Shown here: positions 45,421 through 62,359 of the stretch, piece by piece
Position numbering within the stretch: the stretch's first letter is position 1
Layout: every line of letters starts with the position of its first letter
IMG/VR virus record: IMGVR_UViG_3300014656_000018
Location: 34,119 to 98,118 of that record
Length of the DNA stretch: 64,000 nt
Reading direction: 5' to 3' (one strand)
Origin: a virus
Program-made: the position numbers and the translations under genes
Notes under the pieces: model-generated
Database searches by the model: none
What the model saw: only the letters and a program-made list of their open reading frames with translations
What the model was told of the DNA's origin: nothing

Positions 45421-46250
45421 CTCATGTACCTCTCAACTTTATCCGAAATCTTCTTCCGGATACGTGAGATCTTGGAGGGGCTCATATGAAGCTTGGAAGA
45501 TATCTGTCCCGGAGACAGAGCAGGTGCTCCACTGAGGCCGAAGGTATGTCTGTATACCTGCAGCTCCTCCGGAGTTAACTCATACTGAATGAGCTTCATT
45601 ACCTCCTCCGCACGGGATGGCTCAAGCTTATTGGGATCCTCCTCAAAAGCAGAAGTACCTATATCTTTCCGGATCTCGGAAGACATCCTGGCTATCTCTG
45701 CAGGCTTCCAGCTGAGATGCTTAGACAGCTCATCGATGGTGGGAGGTCTACCGAGCTGCTCATCCAGATAGGACTGAGCTGTTTCAAACTCCCGGATCTT
45801 ATATATCCTGTTCTCGGGAATTCTGGCTATGTTCTGATAGTTGGCAATGAAACGCTTCGTTTTATCCAGATACTTATAGACATAAGTACCAAGAGAGCCT
45901 TTGCTGGGGTCATAGTGATCAAGGGCCGCCAAAAGCTGCCTCTTATACTCCATGTCTATAGCAGCTGGAGGAATACGCACCAGCCCCTTATACATCGCCG
46001 CTTTCTTCTGAAGCATCCTCTCAAATGACTTCAGAAGGGGTCTCATATCTTCCGGCTTCTTACCTCCCTGCTTCCATATTAACCAAAGCTCCTTCTCCTT
46101 CTTCTGCTGCACTGCAAGAGGGGTATCCTCATCCTCCTCTGTCCGGACATAGCCGGAAACAGGCTTTCCTTTTCTCAGATGGGGGCGTACACGCTCCTGC
46201 CTGGTGGCAGCCGTCTTGTACTGAAGTAGCCTGTTAACAGCTCTACTCAT
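45417..46250 (-). CDS. Sigma-70 family RNA polymerase sigma factor
   Basis: Region 2 ALDHYDPSKGSLGTY, RIP, region 3 LGRPPTIDELSKHL, region 4 LTPEE..V....FGL...ISSKLHMSPSKISRIR; start ATG 46250. Confidence 0.9.
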   Translation of the reverse strand: MSRAVNRLLQYKTAATRQERVRPHLRKGKPVSGYVRTEEDEDTPLAVQQKKEKELWLIWKQGGKKPEDMRPLLKSFERMLQKKAAMYKGLVRIPPAAIDMEYKRQLLAALDHYDPSKGSLGTYVYKYLDKTKRFIANYQNIARIPENRIYKIREFETAQSYLDEQLGRPPTIDELSKHLSWKPAEIARMSSEIRKDIGTSAFEEDPNKLEPSRAEEVMKLIQYELTPEELQVYRHTFGLSGAPALSPGQISSKLHMSPSKISRIRKKISDKVERYMR

Positions 46251-48444
46251 GACCAACCGGTGCCAGCTTGCTAAAATCAACTGGTTTGGGGACCTTCTCC
46301 GGATTAAACATTCCCTGAAACTTTCCCACACCCTGATCCCTATGAAGCTTACCTATAATCTTTTGTTTCAGTCCTCCAATATCAGTTACGGCCAGCTGCT
46401 TAACCTGCGGAGAAAACTTATCCGTCTTCTTGGTCAGCCCAGAAGTCTTCTCCTTATCAGAGGTGTCTTCCAATTTTCCGGCCTCCAGAAAGCTTTTACC
46501 TATCTTATCCGCTAATGTTTTTCTTTGCCCAGCATCCAACTTGAAAACCTTTTTATTGTTGGCTGCAGCAGCTCCTTTCTCCACAACCATTCCATGCTCC
46601 GTAGAGGTACTATCATACGATCTTTGAGCTGTATGGGGCTCAAGGTTGGGTTGAGTTTCCGGTATGTCTGCTCTTGCCTTATAAAGCAGGGCCATCCTCT
46701 CAATTTTCTTACGCCGCTTTTTACTACTCTTGTTCGTGGGAAGCTGATCCCCCAAGGCTTCCTGATAGTCTTTCTCATTTAGCCCAAACTCTTTTGCTTC
46801 AACATTTGCCCTCTTACGCTTGTCTGTATTTTTCCTTTTAAGGAGGATATTCAATATAGCCATTCCTATACCTGCCTGCTTACCTTTCTCCAGATGCCAA
46901 TCCGAGAATGATGGAGCACGCAGTGCACCCTTTCCTCGCATCTTCTCCAGGGATAGAACCTTGGCAACCCTACCTTTATATCTATCCGGATATGCCTTCA
47001 TATCTCTGAGAAGCTCATGGCTGAAGCCTGTTCCAACCCGACCGATAGCCGGAGAGTCCGGATGCCATGAGTAGGTAAACCCACCAGCCCTATCCAACTC
47101 TTTACCATCTTTACCGTAGGCAGGAAATACATCCTGAACATATACGTCAAAGTCCGGACGATGCTTGGCCTTGGTAGGAAATGGCTTATCCTTGTCCCAG
47201 ACAATCACACCCTCCTTCGTCTGGGGATTCCTTCCCTCCTTGATGGCATCAAAAAGCTTTCTCTTCTCTATAGGATTCTCTGCGGTATCTGGAAGGTGAA
47301 ATACTTTCTCCCGGCCTGCTATCTCTCTCAAGATACGAAGCTTCTCTGTGTAACCTAGCTGCTCTGCAGGCTTGCCCTTGTGTTTCACAACGTCGAACAG
47401 AGCTGTGGTCAGGTGACCTTTCTCCTCCTGCAGCTCTCTGGATTTCCACACCCCGGCATTCAACATTCCCCCTATATCTTGAGCCGGAATAGCCTGACCC
47501 TTACGATCTACAGCATAGACCTCACCACGAAGAATCGTATCTCCGGTTTCCTTGGAGGCCCTGTGTCCTATAATTCCCGGTACCTTGTGTGTGTACTCTA
47601 TGATTCCGGTATCTCTCTCGGTGGGACGATAGGAGAAGATGCGTGTCTGCTTACCAGGCTTCAGGGATAGTAAAACATGTGCTCCATCTACCTTGGCCTG
47701 TACAATCTCATTGTCCCTATTAAAATCTACCTTCTCTGGCTTCATCTCCTTATATGGAGGCTTACTTGATGGGAGATCGGGCCTTCTCTCCCTGGTAGCA
47801 GTTACATTCTGAAGAAGCCATTTCGTAGGACCACCAGTTCTTCGGAGAATGTACTCAGAGGAATCCTTACCTCTGTAGATATTGAATTTGATAAGATCCG
47901 GATCAGAGTAGGTTATCTCTGTCCTTCCCCGTTCCTGCAATTTTACGGTCCCCTTACCATACCCCTCTGCAAGTACACCCTTATAATCCATGTATGGGAT
48001 AGTATGATCACCCTGTCTGATAGCTAGAAGATGTTCACCGGGAGCAGGCAATATAGCTTTTGGAATTGCCCAGGAGTGGGCTACACCTGTTCTAGGATCC
48101 CCCAACCTCAGATCTAGATGTCTTCCAGCCTTTACTGCAGTATGATCCTGTACAGCCAGCTCCCATATTCTTCCAGAGCCCTCCTCTATCTTGGGTAGGG
48201 AGGTTATATTACCTTTGACCGGAAGTCCGGGAGCAAACTCTTTGCTCTTGTTCTCCGACTGCCTTCTATAGCTGGAGACGAACTTACCCTCTCTGAAGTG
48301 GCCCTTCACCCACTCCACCCCAGCTACCTTGGACATCTCTGCCCTGGCCAGGACTCCGCCCAGCTTGCTCTCCATGTGGGTGTAGCAAAGATGATTGATC
48401 AGAGAGCTATCTCTGCTGAAAAAGTTGTCCAGAGGATTGGTCAT
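46243..48444 (-). CDS. LigD-type 3'-phosphoesterase fused to ATP-dependent DNA ligase
   Basis: PE domain VQDH.A...H.DLRL, SWAIPK, LAI...DH...Y..Y.G....GYG.G.V; ligase motifs KVDG, RGEV, FDV, EGVI, KAK; OB-fold VGTGFS, LRAPSF. Confidence 0.9.
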   Translation of the reverse strand: MTNPLDNFFSRDSSLINHLCYTHMESKLGGVLARAEMSKVAGVEWVKGHFREGKFVSSYRRQSENKSKEFAPGLPVKGNITSLPKIEEGSGRIWELAVQDHTAVKAGRHLDLRLGDPRTGVAHSWAIPKAILPAPGEHLLAIRQGDHTIPYMDYKGVLAEGYGKGTVKLQERGRTEITYSDPDLIKFNIYRGKDSSEYILRRTGGPTKWLLQNVTATRERRPDLPSSKPPYKEMKPEKVDFNRDNEIVQAKVDGAHVLLSLKPGKQTRIFSYRPTERDTGIIEYTHKVPGIIGHRASKETGDTILRGEVYAVDRKGQAIPAQDIGGMLNAGVWKSRELQEEKGHLTTALFDVVKHKGKPAEQLGYTEKLRILREIAGREKVFHLPDTAENPIEKRKLFDAIKEGRNPQTKEGVIVWDKDKPFPTKAKHRPDFDVYVQDVFPAYGKDGKELDRAGGFTYSWHPDSPAIGRVGTGFSHELLRDMKAYPDRYKGRVAKVLSLEKMRGKGALRAPSFSDWHLEKGKQAGIGMAILNILLKRKNTDKRKRANVEAKEFGLNEKDYQEALGDQLPTNKSSKKRRKKIERMALLYKARADIPETQPNLEPHTAQRSYDSTSTEHGMVVEKGAAAANNKKVFKLDAGQRKTLADKIGKSFLEAGKLEDTSDKEKTSGLTKKTDKFSPQVKQLAVTDIGGLKQKIIGKLHRDQGVGKFQGMFNPEKVPKPVDFSKLAPVGHE

Positions 48445-56751: not shown

Positions 56752-56796
56752 AGCTTATACCAGTGAAAGAGAGACCTCAAGCTTTGGTATAAGAAT
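56752..56796. promoter_or_regulatory. Back-to-back TGGTATAAG motifs (divergent promoters)
   Basis: CTTATACCA at 56754-56762 (minus copy) and TGGTATAAG at 56785-56793 (plus copy). Confidence 0.6.
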
Positions 56797-56821
56797 AATA
56801 GAGAGGCAACATAGGAGGAAC

Positions 56822-57010
56822 ATGATGATGATATGGGAAGATAGAATACTGCGAGGTTCCTTCTGCACCCGTTGTGGTGCGGAAGGAGGCCGGGTCGTGA
56901 ACGACCCGGCCTGTGAAGAGAACATCTGCCCCGTATGCGGGGCAGAGGAGCGGCGACGACTCGTCCAGCCCGACACCGAGCATCTCCCCGACGAACATCT
57001 CCCCAAGTAG
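56822..57010 (+). CDS. Small zinc-ribbon protein
   Basis: AGGAGG RBS; CTRCG...CPVCG. Confidence 0.7.
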   Translation: MMMIWEDRILRGSFCTRCGAEGGRVVNDPACEENICPVCGAEERRRLVQPDTEHLPDEHLPK

Positions 57011-57085: not shown

Positions 57086-57101
57086 GGTATAAGAATATTG
57101 A
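57086..57101 (+). promoter_or_regulatory. GGTATAAGAATATTGA promoter-like motif
   Basis: 16-nt identity with 60583-60598. Confidence 0.65.
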
Positions 57102-57199
57102 GGAGGAAATCTAGGAGGACCAAACGCCGGTAGGGCATCATCTCACAGCGACGTGGGGGATGTGTGTCCTGCCCAAGTGAAAAAAACAAGGAGGGTACG

Positions 57200-58312
57200 G
57201 TGTTACCCGTAAGTATAAATAATTATTATGGGGATCCGCTCCACCCGGAGCAGGTCCCCAACACAATAGGAAAGCTCGTCCGCCTACAGGCGGACGGGCA
57301 CAAGGGCCCCGTGGCCCTCATCACCAAGGGGTGGGCCAGTCCCGTGCTGGCCCACAAGTTGAAAGAGGAAAGCCCCGAGGGCCTGGTGGCCCTCATTAGC
57401 ATCTCCAACTGTGTAGGGCAGCTGGAGCCGGTCCCCATCAATAGGCGAATGGAGACCATGAGAAACCTGGTCGGGGCTGGCATCCCGACCATCGCCTACA
57501 TCCGTCCACTGATCGGAGTGGACGGATTGGAGAGACTGTTCACCCTGGTGGCCGGCACCGGGGTGAGGACGGTGATCATTTCGGGGTTTCGTGCCCCGGA
57601 ATCGATTGCTGAGAAGATGGGGGTCGGCGGTGCCTCCGTCAGAGTGAAGCAGATGCCGCCGAGTGCTCGGAGGATCTGCCAGGAGCAGTGCAGCCTTCAC
57701 GGGCTGCAACTGTTCGAGCGCACGGCCTGTGGGGCGGCCTACGCTCTGGGGATTCCACGCCCGTGGAATCCCTACTGGATCTCGCCCCACACGGCAGGTT
57801 GCCTGAGCTGCCCACTGCGGGCGACCTGCTACGACGCCAAAGAACCGCAACCCTCCCGAGAGGGGATGGATCTGGTAACCCGTCTGGGCTACCAACCCAT
57901 CCTCCAGCCGGGCGGAGCCTCCCGGTGCAGCGTCCAGCCGGACAGACGGCTGGAGTGTCTCAGCTGCTGCACAAGCTGCTTCCTGATCGACCGGCCAAGG
58001 GTCGATCTTCGAGCACCGGGAATGACTCTGGGGGATGTGGCCTTCTGCCGCTTCCTTCTCGGAGGCGTCCTGGTGTCCTCACAGGGGGTGGTGGACGGAG
58101 GAGACCCGAAGGTGGGTCATGTCAACCCACCTAACCTGCGATGGCCAGAAGGTGTTGAGGTTCACGCCATCAACACCTGGCTGCCCCTGGCAAAACAAAC
58201 CTCAAAGTGCTTTGGGTGCAGGTACTGCATCACTCCGCACTTTGAGAACGTAAATAGGGAGTACGGCATGTTCCCAAAGGACATGCTCGAATGGGTGTAC
58301 TCCCATGTTTGA
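57200..58312 (+). CDS. SPL-like radical-SAM-related protein, Cys-rich, cluster motif at C-terminus
   Basis: GTG start after AAGGAGG; GDP, ITKG, ISIS...LEP....R, IRPLI, SGFR core; terminal CFGCRYC. Confidence 0.7.
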   Translation: MLPVSINNYYGDPLHPEQVPNTIGKLVRLQADGHKGPVALITKGWASPVLAHKLKEESPEGLVALISISNCVGQLEPVPINRRMETMRNLVGAGIPTIAYIRPLIGVDGLERLFTLVAGTGVRTVIISGFRAPESIAEKMGVGGASVRVKQMPPSARRICQEQCSLHGLQLFERTACGAAYALGIPRPWNPYWISPHTAGCLSCPLRATCYDAKEPQPSREGMDLVTRLGYQPILQPGGASRCSVQPDRRLECLSCCTSCFLIDRPRVDLRAPGMTLGDVAFCRFLLGGVLVSSQGVVDGGDPKVGHVNPPNLRWPEGVEVHAINTWLPLAKQTSKCFGCRYCITPHFENVNREYGMFPKDMLEWVYSHV

Positions 58313-59192
58313 GACGGGATGTCCCATTGGGTGCAAGTACTGCATGGCGACCATGGTCAGGTCCCGTGCAGCCCAATGGGCTGCTGGGAACAGGATTGGT
58401 GTGAATCGGTCCTGTTCATTCATCAATCGACTTCCCGGAGAAACTGCCCTCCGGGATTGGGTGAATCCTGGGATGTTTGCAGGGGACGTCCTTGGGTTCC
58501 AAGGGATCACTGATCCCCTGCTGCCCATATTCCAGGAGGATCTCTCCTGGCTGATCTCGACTGTGGCCAGCAGTCGGATCAGGAAGCTGATGCTGGCTAC
58601 CAAATTTCCACGCCACAATGCGTTAGCAGGACTGGCATCTCTCAAAGAGAAGGCGCTGCTGGTGGTTTCGATCACCGGGCTGGACAGCCTGGAGAAAATC
58701 ACCAGCAGGAAGAGGATCGAGCTGGCGGCAGCTGCTCAGGGGATGGGGATACCCACGATAGCTGCGGCACACCCCTGGATTGAGGGGGTATCTGACCCGG
58801 AGATATTCCAGCAAATCTCTGAAGCCGGGGTTCGGCAGGTCGTAGTAAAAGGGTTCCGCTACGACCCATGCTTTGAAACATGGGCCCCTTCTAACATTCC
58901 CGCCGCTGCACTCTCGGTCTACAGGGAGGCGGGAAATAATGAGACGCTGCTCGGCTCTCCCAAGCAGCTGGCAATAGAGGCGGGCCTGGAGCTGGTAGAT
59001 TTGAAATCTATCGCCCAGGCCCCAAACGGGATACGAGGAGTAACTACTGAGGAAGCTGCTGAATCTGTTAGACAGATGAGGCAGCTGGGGGTGGTTGTCT
59101 CCTCCTCTTCCCCAGAAAAAGTATGGAAGGAAGTACAGACCCGCCGCATTCAGGGTGGTCTATACTTCCGAGGAGGAAGAGATGTTCTTTGA
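58305..59192 (+). CDS. SPL-like radical SAM protein
   Basis: CPIGCKYC (CxxxCxxC), TDP, ATK, VSITG...LE....RI, HPWI.GV, KGFR. Confidence 0.8.
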   Translation: MFETGCPIGCKYCMATMVRSRAAQWAAGNRIGVNRSCSFINRLPGETALRDWVNPGMFAGDVLGFQGITDPLLPIFQEDLSWLISTVASSRIRKLMLATKFPRHNALAGLASLKEKALLVVSITGLDSLEKITSRKRIELAAAAQGMGIPTIAAAHPWIEGVSDPEIFQQISEAGVRQVVVKGFRYDPCFETWAPSNIPAAALSVYREAGNNETLLGSPKQLAIEAGLELVDLKSIAQAPNGIRGVTTEEAAESVRQMRQLGVVVSSSSPEKVWKEVQTRRIQGGLYFRGGRDVL

Positions 59193-60339
59193 TGCGGCTG
59201 CGTCAGCACAGCCCCGGCCCACGGTAATGGAAGCCGTCATGGCCTTCATGGTCATGTACGGCTCCATCCATCGTGGAGCCGGAGAAAGGTCCAAGGAATC
59301 TTCCCGGGCGTATGAAGAAGCCCGGGAAGAGGTAAAACAGTTCCTCAAGGCCACCGACGAAGATGCCGTCGTGCAGGTGGCCAACACAACAGACGGCATC
59401 AACAGGTTGGCCCAGATATTGGCCCCCCAGCTGGGGGGTGGCTCGGTGTTGGTTAGTGACATCGAGCATTCAGCGAATGACCTCCCCTGGCGCCGGGTGG
59501 CCAGGGTAAGAAGATTTGAAACACCCAACTTCAAAATAACAGCGGAGAGTGTTGATCTGGCACTCTCCGCCAACAGTGACATTCGCCTTGTGGCCGTAGC
59601 TGGGGCGAGTAACATCACGGGACAGATCGTGGATGCAGGGGCAATCCATGAGGTCTGTCAAAGGCACAACGTGCCCCTATTCTTCGACTGCTCCCAGCGG
59701 GCGGCTCATGCCGAGTGCTCGCTGAGGGACTGCGAGATGCTGGCCTTCTCCGGACACAAGATCGGAGCACCTTTCGGTGCAGGAATTTTGGCGGGAAGAA
59801 GGTCCCTTCTGGAGACCTCCCACCCGTACGTGGGTGGAGGATCGGTGGTGTATACCACCGATGACAAGGAGTACCACAAACCTGCCCCGGAAGGGATGGA
59901 GGTGGGTACTCCAAATGGTGGCGGGATGGTAGCGGTAGCTGCCGCATGTAGAGAGATCATGCGGCAGGGTTACTCTGCCATCCGGGAGCACGACCGTGCA
60001 GTGGAGGGGTGGTACAGGCAGTACATGCCCCTCCATGAGCTGGACGTGTGGTTCCTGGAGGGAACCACACTGGTGTTCAGGCCCAGGGAGGGGTCTGCGA
60101 AGCAGCTCTCCGAGCGCCTGGGTAGGCTCGGAGTCGAGCACCGCTTTGGGGCCTTCTGCGTGTATGGCGCAGTAGCCCGGAAGATGGGTGTTGACAGGGA
60201 GTCAGTGGAACAGGAAGTTCTGCTGACAGGAAAGTTACCAAAGGAGTTCGGTGCTCTCAGATTGAGCGCCGAGCATTTTGTGGGTCAGGACACGGTAGCG
60301 GAAGCTGCCCTGTGCCTGAGTATGGCTGTGAAAGAGTGA
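59182..60339 (+). CDS. Cysteine desulfurase-like class V PLP enzyme (SufS-like)
   Basis: FDAAAS, HRG, NTT..IN, EH.AN..PW, ASNITG, D.SQ, SGHK (PLP Lys), GTPN, RFGAFC (catalytic Cys position); ATG 59182 after GGAGG. Confidence 0.9.
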   Translation: MFFDAAASAQPRPTVMEAVMAFMVMYGSIHRGAGERSKESSRAYEEAREEVKQFLKATDEDAVVQVANTTDGINRLAQILAPQLGGGSVLVSDIEHSANDLPWRRVARVRRFETPNFKITAESVDLALSANSDIRLVAVAGASNITGQIVDAGAIHEVCQRHNVPLFFDCSQRAAHAECSLRDCEMLAFSGHKIGAPFGAGILAGRRSLLETSHPYVGGGSVVYTTDDKEYHKPAPEGMEVGTPNGGGMVAVAAACREIMRQGYSAIREHDRAVEGWYRQYMPLHELDVWFLEGTTLVFRPREGSAKQLSERLGRLGVEHRFGAFCVYGAVARKMGVDRESVEQEVLLTGKLPKEFGALRLSAEHFVGQDTVAEAALCLSMAVKE

Positions 60340-60367
60340 GCACAGTGTGATCACATGGCACGGAATA

Positions 60368-60530
60368 CAACCATGTCAGAGTTTGAGGTAATCCAGGCCT
60401 TGTGGCCGTGCTGCACGCAGTGGTGGAAACGACCACAGCATCTGGGAAGCTCGTAATTGAGCAACGGCCCGAAAGGGACGGAATGCTGCGTAAAGATGCA
60501 CGGAAGTGGTTTGAGGGGAGGACATGGTTG
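60368..60530 (+). ncRNA. Candidate multi-stem structured RNA (family unknown)
   Basis: Nested complementarity: CAACCATGTC/GACATGGTTG, CCGTGC/GCACGG, ACGCA/TGCGT, GTGGT/ACCAC, GCAT/ATGC, GCTC/GAGC, CCC-GAAA-GGG. Confidence 0.55.
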
Positions 60531-60560
60531 GGAGAAGAGGATTTCCTCTTCTCTTTAGCT
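60531..60560 (+). terminator. Hairpin terminator
   Basis: GAGAAGAGG-ATTT-CCTCTTCTC then TTTAGCT. Confidence 0.75.
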
Positions 60561-60582: not shown

Positions 60583-60598
60583 GGTATAAGAATATTGA
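60583..60598 (+). promoter_or_regulatory. GGTATAAGAATATTGA promoter-like motif
   Basis: Copy of the 57086 motif, upstream of the 60631 gene. Confidence 0.65.
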
Positions 60599-60630
60599 AG
60601 GAGAAACCTATTCACTGAAAAGGAGGTGAT

Positions 60631-60897
60631 ATGTTCTCCCTACTACTTGGTGTCTTCATGCCAGCCCTGACATCAGGGCTAGCGCTGGTCGCCTCTTCCC
60701 GGCTGATACCAAAGCCGGAGGAGGTGATTCGGGCTCTCTCCCCGTTTGGGGACGAGGAGGTACCGATCTTTTTGAATGAATCAGACGCTGCCAAGTGTTT
60801 CATGTACCTGGCAGCGGGGAGGGGGCCCGAGTGGGGCCCCGAGGCGGAGGAAATAAGAAAAAGGTCAGAGGCCCGAAAAAAGAAGCTGGGCCTCTGA
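60631..60897 (+). CDS. Hypothetical protein with hydrophobic N-terminus
   Basis: AGGAGGTG RBS. Confidence 0.7.
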   Translation: MFSLLLGVFMPALTSGLALVASSRLIPKPEEVIRALSPFGDEEVPIFLNESDAAKCFMYLAAGRGPEWGPEAEEIRKRSEARKKKLGL

Positions 60898-61672: not shown

Positions 61673-62359
61673 GTGTCAAGCTACATAATAGGAGAGCTGG
61701 AAGAACTATATTCCGAAGAGTTGATTATAGGAGTAGATGAGGCAGGAGTCGGATCTTTAGCCGGACCTATGACAGCGGCTGCAGTCATAATGGATCCCAT
61801 GAACCTGGGGAATGGTATCAAGGACTCAAAAAAGGTAAGTGGACATAAGAGAGTCAGGCTGGGGGAAATGATAAAAGAGAAAGCATTATATATTGGGACA
61901 TGTCTGATAAGTCACCTAGAGGTAGATTCCCTTGGGATGAGGAGGGCCAGCGACAGAGTAAAAAGCAGAGCAGCTCAGCAAGTGCTGGACCAGCTCGCCA
62001 TAGATGGTGTCACCATGAGACCTATAGTTCTGGTTGATGGTGAGCTTTTTATCTCCGGGCTCAGAAAGGTAAGGCAGTATCCATATCCCAAGGGGGAGAG
62101 CAGAAGCTGGAACATCGCTGCTGCATCGATCATAGCCACAAACACATATGAGGAATGGATACATGAGGTAGCAGAGGAAAGATGGCCAAGGTATGGGTTC
62201 AGCTACCACAAAGGGTATGGTACCAGAGAGCATATGGAAAAGCTGTTGATGTATGGTCCTTGTCCTATCCACAGAAGGTGTCTTTCACCTATCAGGGAAC
62301 TTCTGGGTGAGGATAAAAAAATACCACACAGCAGAGTAGACAGACTATCTTCCAGGTAA
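61673..62359 (+). CDS. rnhB: Ribonuclease HII
   Basis: GVDEAG.GSLAGP, DSKK, VDG, IAAASII, HKGYGT..H, GP.PIHR. Confidence 0.93.
   Translation: MSSYIIGELEELYSEELIIGVDEAGVGSLAGPMTAAAVIMDPMNLGNGIKDSKKVSGHKRVRLGEMIKEKALYIGTCLISHLEVDSLGMRRASDRVKSRAAQQVLDQLAIDGVTMRPIVLVDGELFISGLRKVRQYPYPKGESRSWNIAAASIIATNTYEEWIHEVAEERWPRYGFSYHKGYGTREHMEKLLMYGPCPIHRRCLSPIRELLGEDKKIPHSRVDRLSSR

Follow-up and report, generated by a model that had tools for sequence, protein, structure and literature searches.

We analysed a three-gene cassette at positions 57086 to 60560 of a 64,000-nucleotide stretch of viral DNA (hereafter the window). The window spans bases 34119-98118 of the 98,118-bp linear IMG/VR virus record IMGVR_UViG_3300014656_000018, for which CheckV estimates a completeness of 53%; the phage that carries the cassette is uncultivated. 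The three genes form a conserved module, in which two paralogous radical S-adenosylmethionine (SAM) proteins are encoded beside a cysteine desulfurase-like enzyme with intact catalytic residues. One of the paralogues is circularly permuted, and natural gene fusions join members of the trio to each other. The cassette was first singled out in a model-made reading of the DNA (the original prediction). Its three open reading frames (ORFs) are listed below, PLP standing for pyridoxal 5′-phosphate.

57200..58312 (alternative start 57164), plus strand: ORF1, circularly permuted radical-SAM-fold protein
58305..59192, plus strand: ORF2, canonical single-cluster radical SAM paralogue with CPIGCKYC at residues 6-13
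59182..60339, plus strand: ORF3, SufS/CsdA-type (type II) cysteine desulfurase-like PLP enzyme

Gene order and distribution of the trio

The likely start of ORF1 is GTG 57200, 5 nucleotides (nt) behind AAGGAGGG; the alternative start, GTG 57164, gives a protein of 382 amino acids (aa). The ATG of ORF2 overlaps the ORF1 stop by 8 nt. The ATG of ORF3 is preceded by GAGGAGGAAGAG, and its overlap with the ORF2 stop is 11 nt. These start/stop overlaps suggest translational coupling of the three genes. The GC content of the cassette is 58.8% versus 47.2% in the remaining window, and the GC content at third codon positions of its genes is 0.61-0.73. In composition, the cassette is foreign to the phage. 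The overlapping, GC-richer genes that had been predicted originally are confirmed by these values.

Scans for homologous loci yielded five viral ones (the fifth being L090), 15 in metagenome-assembled genomes (MAGs), and 54 metagenomic ones. Most of the MAGs are Patescibacteria (candidate phyla radiation, CPR); the rest comprise some Alphaproteobacteria, a single Succinivibrionaceae, and a single Micrarchaeota bin. Mapping with hidden Markov models (HMMs) places the desulfurase, ORF1, and ORF2 next to each other in nearly every locus. The loci were clustered at 80% identity into 36 lineages, and the whole trio is contiguous in 30 of them. The desulfurase precedes ORF1 and ORF2 (DES-ORF1-ORF2) in 25 lineages and follows them (ORF1-ORF2-DES) in two, the window among them. 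Contig ends interrupt 3-4 of the 36 lineages. The desulfurase is missing only in L005 and L007, and these records are 69-72% complete. Fused genes join the trio in two ways. The first is a fusion of desulfurase and ORF1, which occurs in P0024, P0031, and L029. The second combines ORF1-like and ORF2-like domains, and is represented by five proteins of 795-821 aa; a scan of viral contigs found no such 820-aa ORF1-ORF2-like fusion. The original prediction had named a gene-neighbourhood search for the trio as a check, and co-occurrence is what this search found. Together with the foreign composition, it supports the predicted self-contained, acquired cassette; self-contained the cassette is.

Aside from a kinase in four lineages, no neighbour of the trio is conserved among the 36 lineages. 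This kinase is a divergent ADK-family nucleoside monophosphate (NMP) kinase that lies beside or inside the cassette, twice between ORF1 and ORF2. What flanks the cassette varies, with housekeeping genes (RRF, topoisomerase, RuvC) at one extreme and genes of mobile elements (Fic, TrwB) at the other. The cassette is not specific to phages, as it was also found beside housekeeping genes on contigs from CPR-type and other MAGs. Viral and CPR sequences are interleaved in the ORF1 tree. The ORF1 family was found in about 5 of 401 sampled Patescibacteria genomes, and its distribution is therefore sporadic, as expected of an accessory mobile unit. Searches of 50,697 GenBank phage records by blastn and tblastn returned no relative of the cassette.

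The three proteins

ORF1 has no family match in Pfam, PHROGs, or NCBIfam, and ORF2 has only sub-threshold ones. The two proteins are paralogues. BLASTP aligns them with an E value of 5e-8 over 73 aa, spanning the motifs that the original prediction had listed, and hhalign aligns their families with 97.7% probability (E 1.5e-12, 138 columns). Hence, the predicted pair of radical SAM paralogues stands, but the permutation of ORF1, its CX2CX2C motif, and its extra cysteines had been overlooked. ORF1 lacks an N-terminal canonical CX3CX2C. It has an invariant C-terminal CX2CX2C composed of C349, C352, and C355 (382-aa numbering). Nine more cysteines are invariant or near-invariant (C189, C213, C216, C222, C255, C265, C268, C269, and C272), which brings the conserved total to 12. 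The cysteine-rich insert includes a CX2CX5C element. C268 and C269 form a CC dyad, which is near-invariant in the desulfurase-linked ORF1 family and absent from stand-alone relatives. Judging from this conservation pattern, the extra cysteines probably hold two further [4Fe-4S] clusters and make up the CC dyad.

An ORF1 profile search of 1.84 billion representative proteins retrieved 512 relatives at E ≤ 1e-3, which have four architectures. The first one is the ORF1 type with the C-terminal CX2CX2C, the second has an N-terminal CX2CX2C, the third is about 310 aa long and has a C-terminal CX3CX2C, and the fourth has the canonical N-terminal motif. In the relatives with N-terminal CX2CX2C, the segment that matches ORF1-profile positions ~330-376 precedes the one that matches positions 2-312, the reverse of the ORF1 order. 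As the domain order is reversed in these natural non-permuted relatives, the alignment shows that ORF1 is circularly permuted, with the β1 strand, the cluster loop, and the α1 helix moved to the C-terminus.

The AlphaFold model of ORF1 (predicted local distance difference test (pLDDT) score 92.2, predicted template modelling score 0.92) begins at the equivalent of strand β2. Its residue 1 aligns to residue 66 of PFL-AE, residue 133 of spore photoproduct lyase (SPL), residue 118 of viperin, and residue 153 of SkfB, which are 35-40 residues past the cysteine motifs of these enzymes. The model matches PFL-AE, NifB, LIAS, LipA, SPL, and viperin with VIA Z scores of 9.6-11.8. As modelled, ORF1 has a radical SAM barrel fold, and it is homologous to radical SAM proteins. 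The chain appears to be closed by the motif-bearing strand-loop-helix at residues 327-369 (370-aa numbering), the packing of which, like the assignment of the clusters, we infer from sequence and the ranges of the alignments. When ORF1 is artificially un-permuted, its hhalign match to ORF2 lengthens from 138 to 153 columns, with the cysteine motif still not reached. In two more distant relatives, P0116 (727 aa) and P0094 (493 aa), a short permuted radical SAM domain with C-terminal CX3CX2C and a canonical PF04055 domain are joined in one protein, so permuted and canonical domains are paired outside the ORF1 family as well.

The stand-alone, non-permuted CX2CX2C relatives are found on large phage contigs, some as long as 545 kb, with neither a desulfurase nor ORF2. 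Among their neighbours are genes for a dUTPase, an adenylosuccinate-synthetase-like protein, a nucleoside deoxyribosyltransferase, OMP decarboxylase, RNR, and RNase HII. Those with the N-terminal CX2CX2C on the viral contigs L091-L100 and L103 are an uncharacterised family in their own right. About 2.4 kb from one of these stand-alone relatives lies a gene for a DUF1848 protein (L100:2830-3594, minus strand; PF08902, E 6.7e-82), whose CX3CX2C is at residue 245 of 255. DUF1848 is a small uncharacterised family with a radical-SAM-like CX3CX2C at the C-terminus, and to our knowledge the only catalogued one with such a C-terminal motif. It resembles ORF1 in motif position, but its spacing is canonical and it has no cysteine-rich insert. 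Kinship of ORF1 with DUF1848 is not supported: the record has no PF08902 match at E ≤ 10, and hhalign gives 1.9% probability against one DUF1848 member.

ORF2 has CPxGCxYC at residues 6-13. C6, C10, and C13 are invariant, both in a set of eight sequences and in a set of 32, and no other cysteine is conserved. In the AlphaFold model of ORF2 (pLDDT 91.6), residues 1-5 align at the cysteine motif of solved radical SAM enzymes, and the top VIA matches are all radical SAM enzymes (Z 9-12). According to the model, ORF2 is a divergent radical SAM superfamily member with CX3CX2C and a partial (β/α)6 TIM-barrel; its Pfam PF04055 score of 14.7 bits is below the gathering score of 29.5. The original prediction had invoked SPL-like radical SAM enzymes, a label for which the matches are weak. 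SPL (4fhc) leads the structural matches of ORF2, with which it shares the partial TIM-barrel radical SAM fold (Foldseek E 7e-5; VIA Z 12.0, 208 residues), but the VIA score is tied with those of NifB, PFL-AE, and SkfB. Among the COG1533 'SplB-like' families (PA0069 NF033668 and Rv2578c NF038135), ORF2 and relatives of ORF1 have faint HMM matches, far below the cut-offs (17.7 versus 360 bits for NF033668), and one source names a homologue 'DNA repair photolyase'. Profile searches of PDB sequences with the ORF1 and ORF2 families returned nothing meaningful, and no SPL match at E ≤ 10. ORF2 lacks an SPL-type H-donor cysteine, because no cysteine is conserved beyond the cluster motif. We thus rejected an SPL identity for ORF2, which has neither sequence membership nor the H-donor cysteine and resembles SPL only in fold. 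The cassette further differs from SPL and COG1533 in that ORF1 is permuted and has CX2CX2C and the cysteine-rich insert, and in that ORF1 and ORF2 are paired with a desulfurase.

ORF3 is a class-V aminotransferase (Pfam PF00266, 181 bits) with an E value of 2.2e-51 to NCBIfam SufS. The SufS/IscS-type desulfurase of the original prediction is thereby confirmed as SufS-like. Its best PDB relatives by sequence are SufS/CsdA enzymes (E ~1e-35). The PLP lysine (K193 in GHK) and the catalytic cysteine (C326 in RxGxFC) are intact, and in alignment the RxGxFC loop falls on RAGTHCA of the SufS structure 4w91. Both residues, together with H96 and R360, are invariant across the four desulfurase sequences compared, which include fused forms. 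ORF3 is below the curated NCBIfam SufS/CsdA cut-off (TIGR01979, 175 versus 475.1 bits), and no conserved SufE/SufU/CsdE-type acceptor gene lies near the trio. ORF3 is a separate subfamily, with ORF1 as its probable acceptor. In several CPR-type lineages (L021:6040-7833, L027:6182-7930, L041, L060, L039, and L044), the desulfurase has a conserved N-terminal extension of ~160 aa. This extension has no PDB sequence match, and its assignment to DHHA1 (Atlas score 0.80) was dropped because a PF02272 scan of two genomes was unsupportive. In L057, L058, and L061, the desulfurase is split into two adjacent ORFs (about 6088-7846 in L057), a possible frameshift or assembly error; it is whole in the close relatives L044 and L048.

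Promoter-like motif, 3′ region, and genomic setting

The remaining features of the cassette region are as follows.

56786..56805, plus strand: promoter-like motif copy 1 (GGTATAAGAATA..., exact 12-mer), preceding the 62-aa zinc-ribbon ORF
56822..57010, plus strand: zinc-ribbon ORF of 62 aa, CxxC...CPxC (two CxxC pairs), GC 59.8%, weak zinc-ribbon Pfam matches
57086..57105, plus strand: promoter-like motif copy 2, upstream of the cassette
60340..60529, plus strand: 3′ untranslated/intergenic stretch, earlier called structured RNA, weak fold evidence
60530..60556 (hairpin 60530-60553), plus strand: 10-bp hairpin followed by TTT, possible weak terminator by fold and sequence
60583..60602, plus strand: promoter-like motif copy 3, opening the next transcription unit (gene at 60631)

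The 12-mer GGTATAAGAATA has just three exact copies in the whole 98-kb record (56786, 57086, and 60583), all within 4 kb, and the predicted promoter motif is confirmed in this respect. With up to one mismatch allowed, 0.31 matches are expected by chance. The 12-mer continues as (A/T)T(A/G)..., and each copy precedes a transcription unit: the first the zinc-ribbon ORF, the second the cassette, and the third the unit that follows. The motif does not resemble sigma-70 promoters, and a sigma-70 scan of the region called none. Its placement is consistent with a phage-specific promoter class that may serve only the GC-rich patch. The zinc-ribbon ORF may have arrived together with the cassette; it has no homologue in any related locus and is not a conserved part of the cassette.

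The original prediction also placed a multi-stem structured RNA and a terminator behind ORF3. The former is doubtful. The fold of 60340-60530 is only moderately better than that of shuffled sequence (minimum free energy z -2.67; 2/200 shuffles), an Rfam search gave only chance-level hits and no match at E ≤ 1, and the stretch has neither a counterpart in related loci nor a second copy in the window. Nor do the small ORFs of the 3′ region recur in related loci. As for the terminator, the 10-bp hairpin is present, but only TTT follows it and a consensus terminator scan did not call it.

For most large ORFs of the window, Pfam and PHROGs yielded no match. On the minus strand, 23698-56725 is taken up by a series of very large ORFs (1089, 1464, 1492, 1094, 1090, and 1181 aa), and the three of them that were checked have no Pfam/PHROG match. 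The cassette region is flanked on one side by a gene for a 733-aa fusion of LigD 3′-phosphoesterase to ATP-dependent DNA ligase (46243-48444, minus strand), and on the other side by an RNase HII gene (61673-62359, plus strand).

Candidate chemistry and its alternatives

We propose that the three genes encode one mobile, self-sufficient enzyme module, the proteins of which would work as a complex. ORF3 would form a persulfide on its catalytic cysteine and hand the persulfide sulfur to ORF1. ORF1 would act as a permuted CX2CX2C radical SAM enzyme with two auxiliary [4Fe-4S] clusters and the CC dyad, and ORF2, the single-cluster paralogue, would perform a second, coupled radical step. As the product, we favour a nucleotide or nucleic-acid base that would contain sulfur or be altered by radical chemistry in some other way. 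Taken as a whole, this is the best explanation of the module, and we give it an even chance of being right. Within it, we infer the sulfur transfer from ORF3 to ORF1, the number of clusters, and the formation of a complex; the identity of the substrate and thiolation itself are speculative. The handover of sulfur to ORF1 is proposed because the two proteins are naturally fused, no scaffold or acceptor gene is present, and the CC dyad is confined to the desulfurase-linked family.

A nucleotide or nucleic-acid target is hinted at indirectly by the facultative kinase, the nucleotide-metabolism genes around the stand-alone relatives, and the distant COG1533/SPL-like kinship. The RNase HII and DNA ligase genes nearby in the window add to the hint. 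For the kinase, it would hold by analogy with viperin-kinase pairs and phage deoxynucleoside monophosphate kinases. Viperin and prokaryotic viperins are genomically linked to an NMP kinase (CMPK2-type), which points to a nucleotide substrate. Viperin 5vsl matches the models of both ORF1 (Z 9.6) and ORF2 (Z 10.4). The cassette differs from viperin in having two radical SAM proteins and a desulfurase, in that the kinase is facultative, and in showing no sequence similarity to it.

LipA/LIAS, BioB, and MiaB/RimO resemble the proposed chemistry in having extra Fe-S clusters beside a radical SAM core and in depending on cysteine-derived sulfur. Of the structures compared with ORF1, those of LIAS, LipA, and BioB score among the highest (Z 9.4-11.0), and in LipS1/LipS2, two paralogous radical SAM proteins act together. 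Unlike the cassette, these systems have no dedicated or fused desulfurase; their cluster motifs and topology are different, and there is no kinship at sequence level.

Several observations weigh against the proposed module chemistry. The ORF1 matches to LipA, LIAS, and BioB are tied with matches to radical SAM enzymes that do not handle sulfur. Neither a sulfur carrier nor a scaffold or substrate-binding domain came to light, and the NMP kinase is present in only 4 of the 36 lineages. The stand-alone non-permuted relatives keep most of the cysteines with no desulfurase adjoining, and the auxiliary clusters therefore need not be sulfur donors.

The last point leads to the alternative that survives best, which we regard as possible but on the unlikely side. 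Here the desulfurase would be only a private builder or repairer of Fe-S clusters for a four-cluster ORF1/ORF2 pair, and the pair would carry out C-H, C-C, or isomerisation chemistry on a nucleotide or DNA with no sulfur transfer. The 12 conserved cysteines of ORF1 would fit such a role, as would the stand-alone relatives that have similar cysteines and no desulfurase. The cassette moves among phages, CPR, Proteobacteria, and an archaeal MAG, and is sporadic, so self-sufficiency in clusters would pay. However, the cassette and its surroundings encode no IscU-, SufU-, or NifU-type scaffold, and a direct fusion of desulfurase and client would be unusual if it served cluster assembly only. The restriction of the CC dyad to the desulfurase-linked family also weighs against this alternative.

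Modification of a peptide or of a host or phage protein, with the auxiliary clusters of ORF1 used as in anSME, SkfB, and SuiB, is improbable. Enzymes of this SPASM type, including those for peptides that are ribosomally synthesised and modified after translation (RiPPs), do align with the ORF1 model (SkfB, SuiB, PqqE, and anSME; Z 8.3-9.8), and the CX2CX5C element of the cysteine-rich insert is in keeping with them, but their structural scores are tied with those of many other radical SAM enzymes. In the 36 lineages, no conserved small ORF or client gene adjoins the cassette, and no RiPP recognition or PqqD-like domain was found.

Thymidine hypermodification of the M6 gp52/gp53 type, in which a PLP enzyme trims an amino-acid adduct on DNA and an SPL-like radical SAM enzyme isomerises it, is the least credible of the alternatives and very improbable. 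In phage M6, a radical SAM isomerase resembling SPL acts on DNA together with a PLP decarboxylase and a P-loop kinase (PMC8989533), and SPL is the top structural match of ORF2. The M6-type pathway is a poor fit because the PLP enzyme of the cassette is SufS-like and no hydroxymethylase is present. Specifically, ORF3 is of fold-type I with an invariant catalytic cysteine, unlike the tryptophan-synthase-beta-like (fold-type II) decarboxylase of M6, and the 98-kb record, which is 53% complete, has no thymidylate-synthase-like hydroxymethylase. No aGPT-Pplase or DNA kinase is conserved beside the trio, although no model was used to seek aGPT-Pplase, and the cassette also occurs in cellular MAGs.

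Two further catalogued systems do not fit. In DndA/SspA phosphorothioation, sulfur passes from a dedicated cysteine desulfurase to an Fe-S protein that has a cysteine dyad, all within a mobile DNA-modification module (PMC10853773). A Dnd-type system is a poor fit here because there is no DndC-like gene: the record lacks a DndC-type PAPS-reductase-fold/PP-loop protein (PF01507), and none of DndC, DndD, and DndE is among the 120 neighbours of the 36 lineages. ORF3 scores 52 bits against DndA (cut-off 480), and its partners are radical SAM enzymes, unlike those of Dnd. With the models of the radical SAM mobile pair (TIGR04470/TIGR04471), ORF2 gives no match, and the score of ORF1 for TIGR04470 is 10.6 bits (cut-off 410; E 0.27). 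No curated family fits the trio, and the searchable literature has no description of it or of a permuted radical SAM core. The pathway had originally been predicted as possibly undescribed, and it indeed matches no characterised one in Pfam, NCBIfam, PHROGs, the PDB sequence search, or the searchable papers.

Taken separately, both radical SAM enzymes and cysteine desulfurases are familiar, but their present combination is uncatalogued. The genes are tied together by a strict order in the 36 lineages, by natural fusions in both directions, and by probable translational coupling. ORF1 is an enzymological oddity, in which the cluster-binding strand and loop are relocated to the C-terminus and the motif has CX2CX2C spacing; its non-permuted relatives with CX2CX2C show how the rearrangement arose. 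In its fullest form, our reading of the trio is of a new route to a thio-modified or radically rebuilt nucleotide or base, in which the desulfurase would load a permuted three-cluster ORF1 directly and which would have spread among phages and CPR for defence or counter-defence. That full form is speculative, and we think it distinctly unlikely as a whole. The cassette is small and self-contained and has no partner genes, so its expression should reveal the product directly. If the product is a modified nucleotide or base, the module would bring new chemistry to phage-host conflict and CPR biology. If the permuted ORF1 is loaded with sulfur directly, it would represent a new class of sulfur-inserting radical SAM chemistry.

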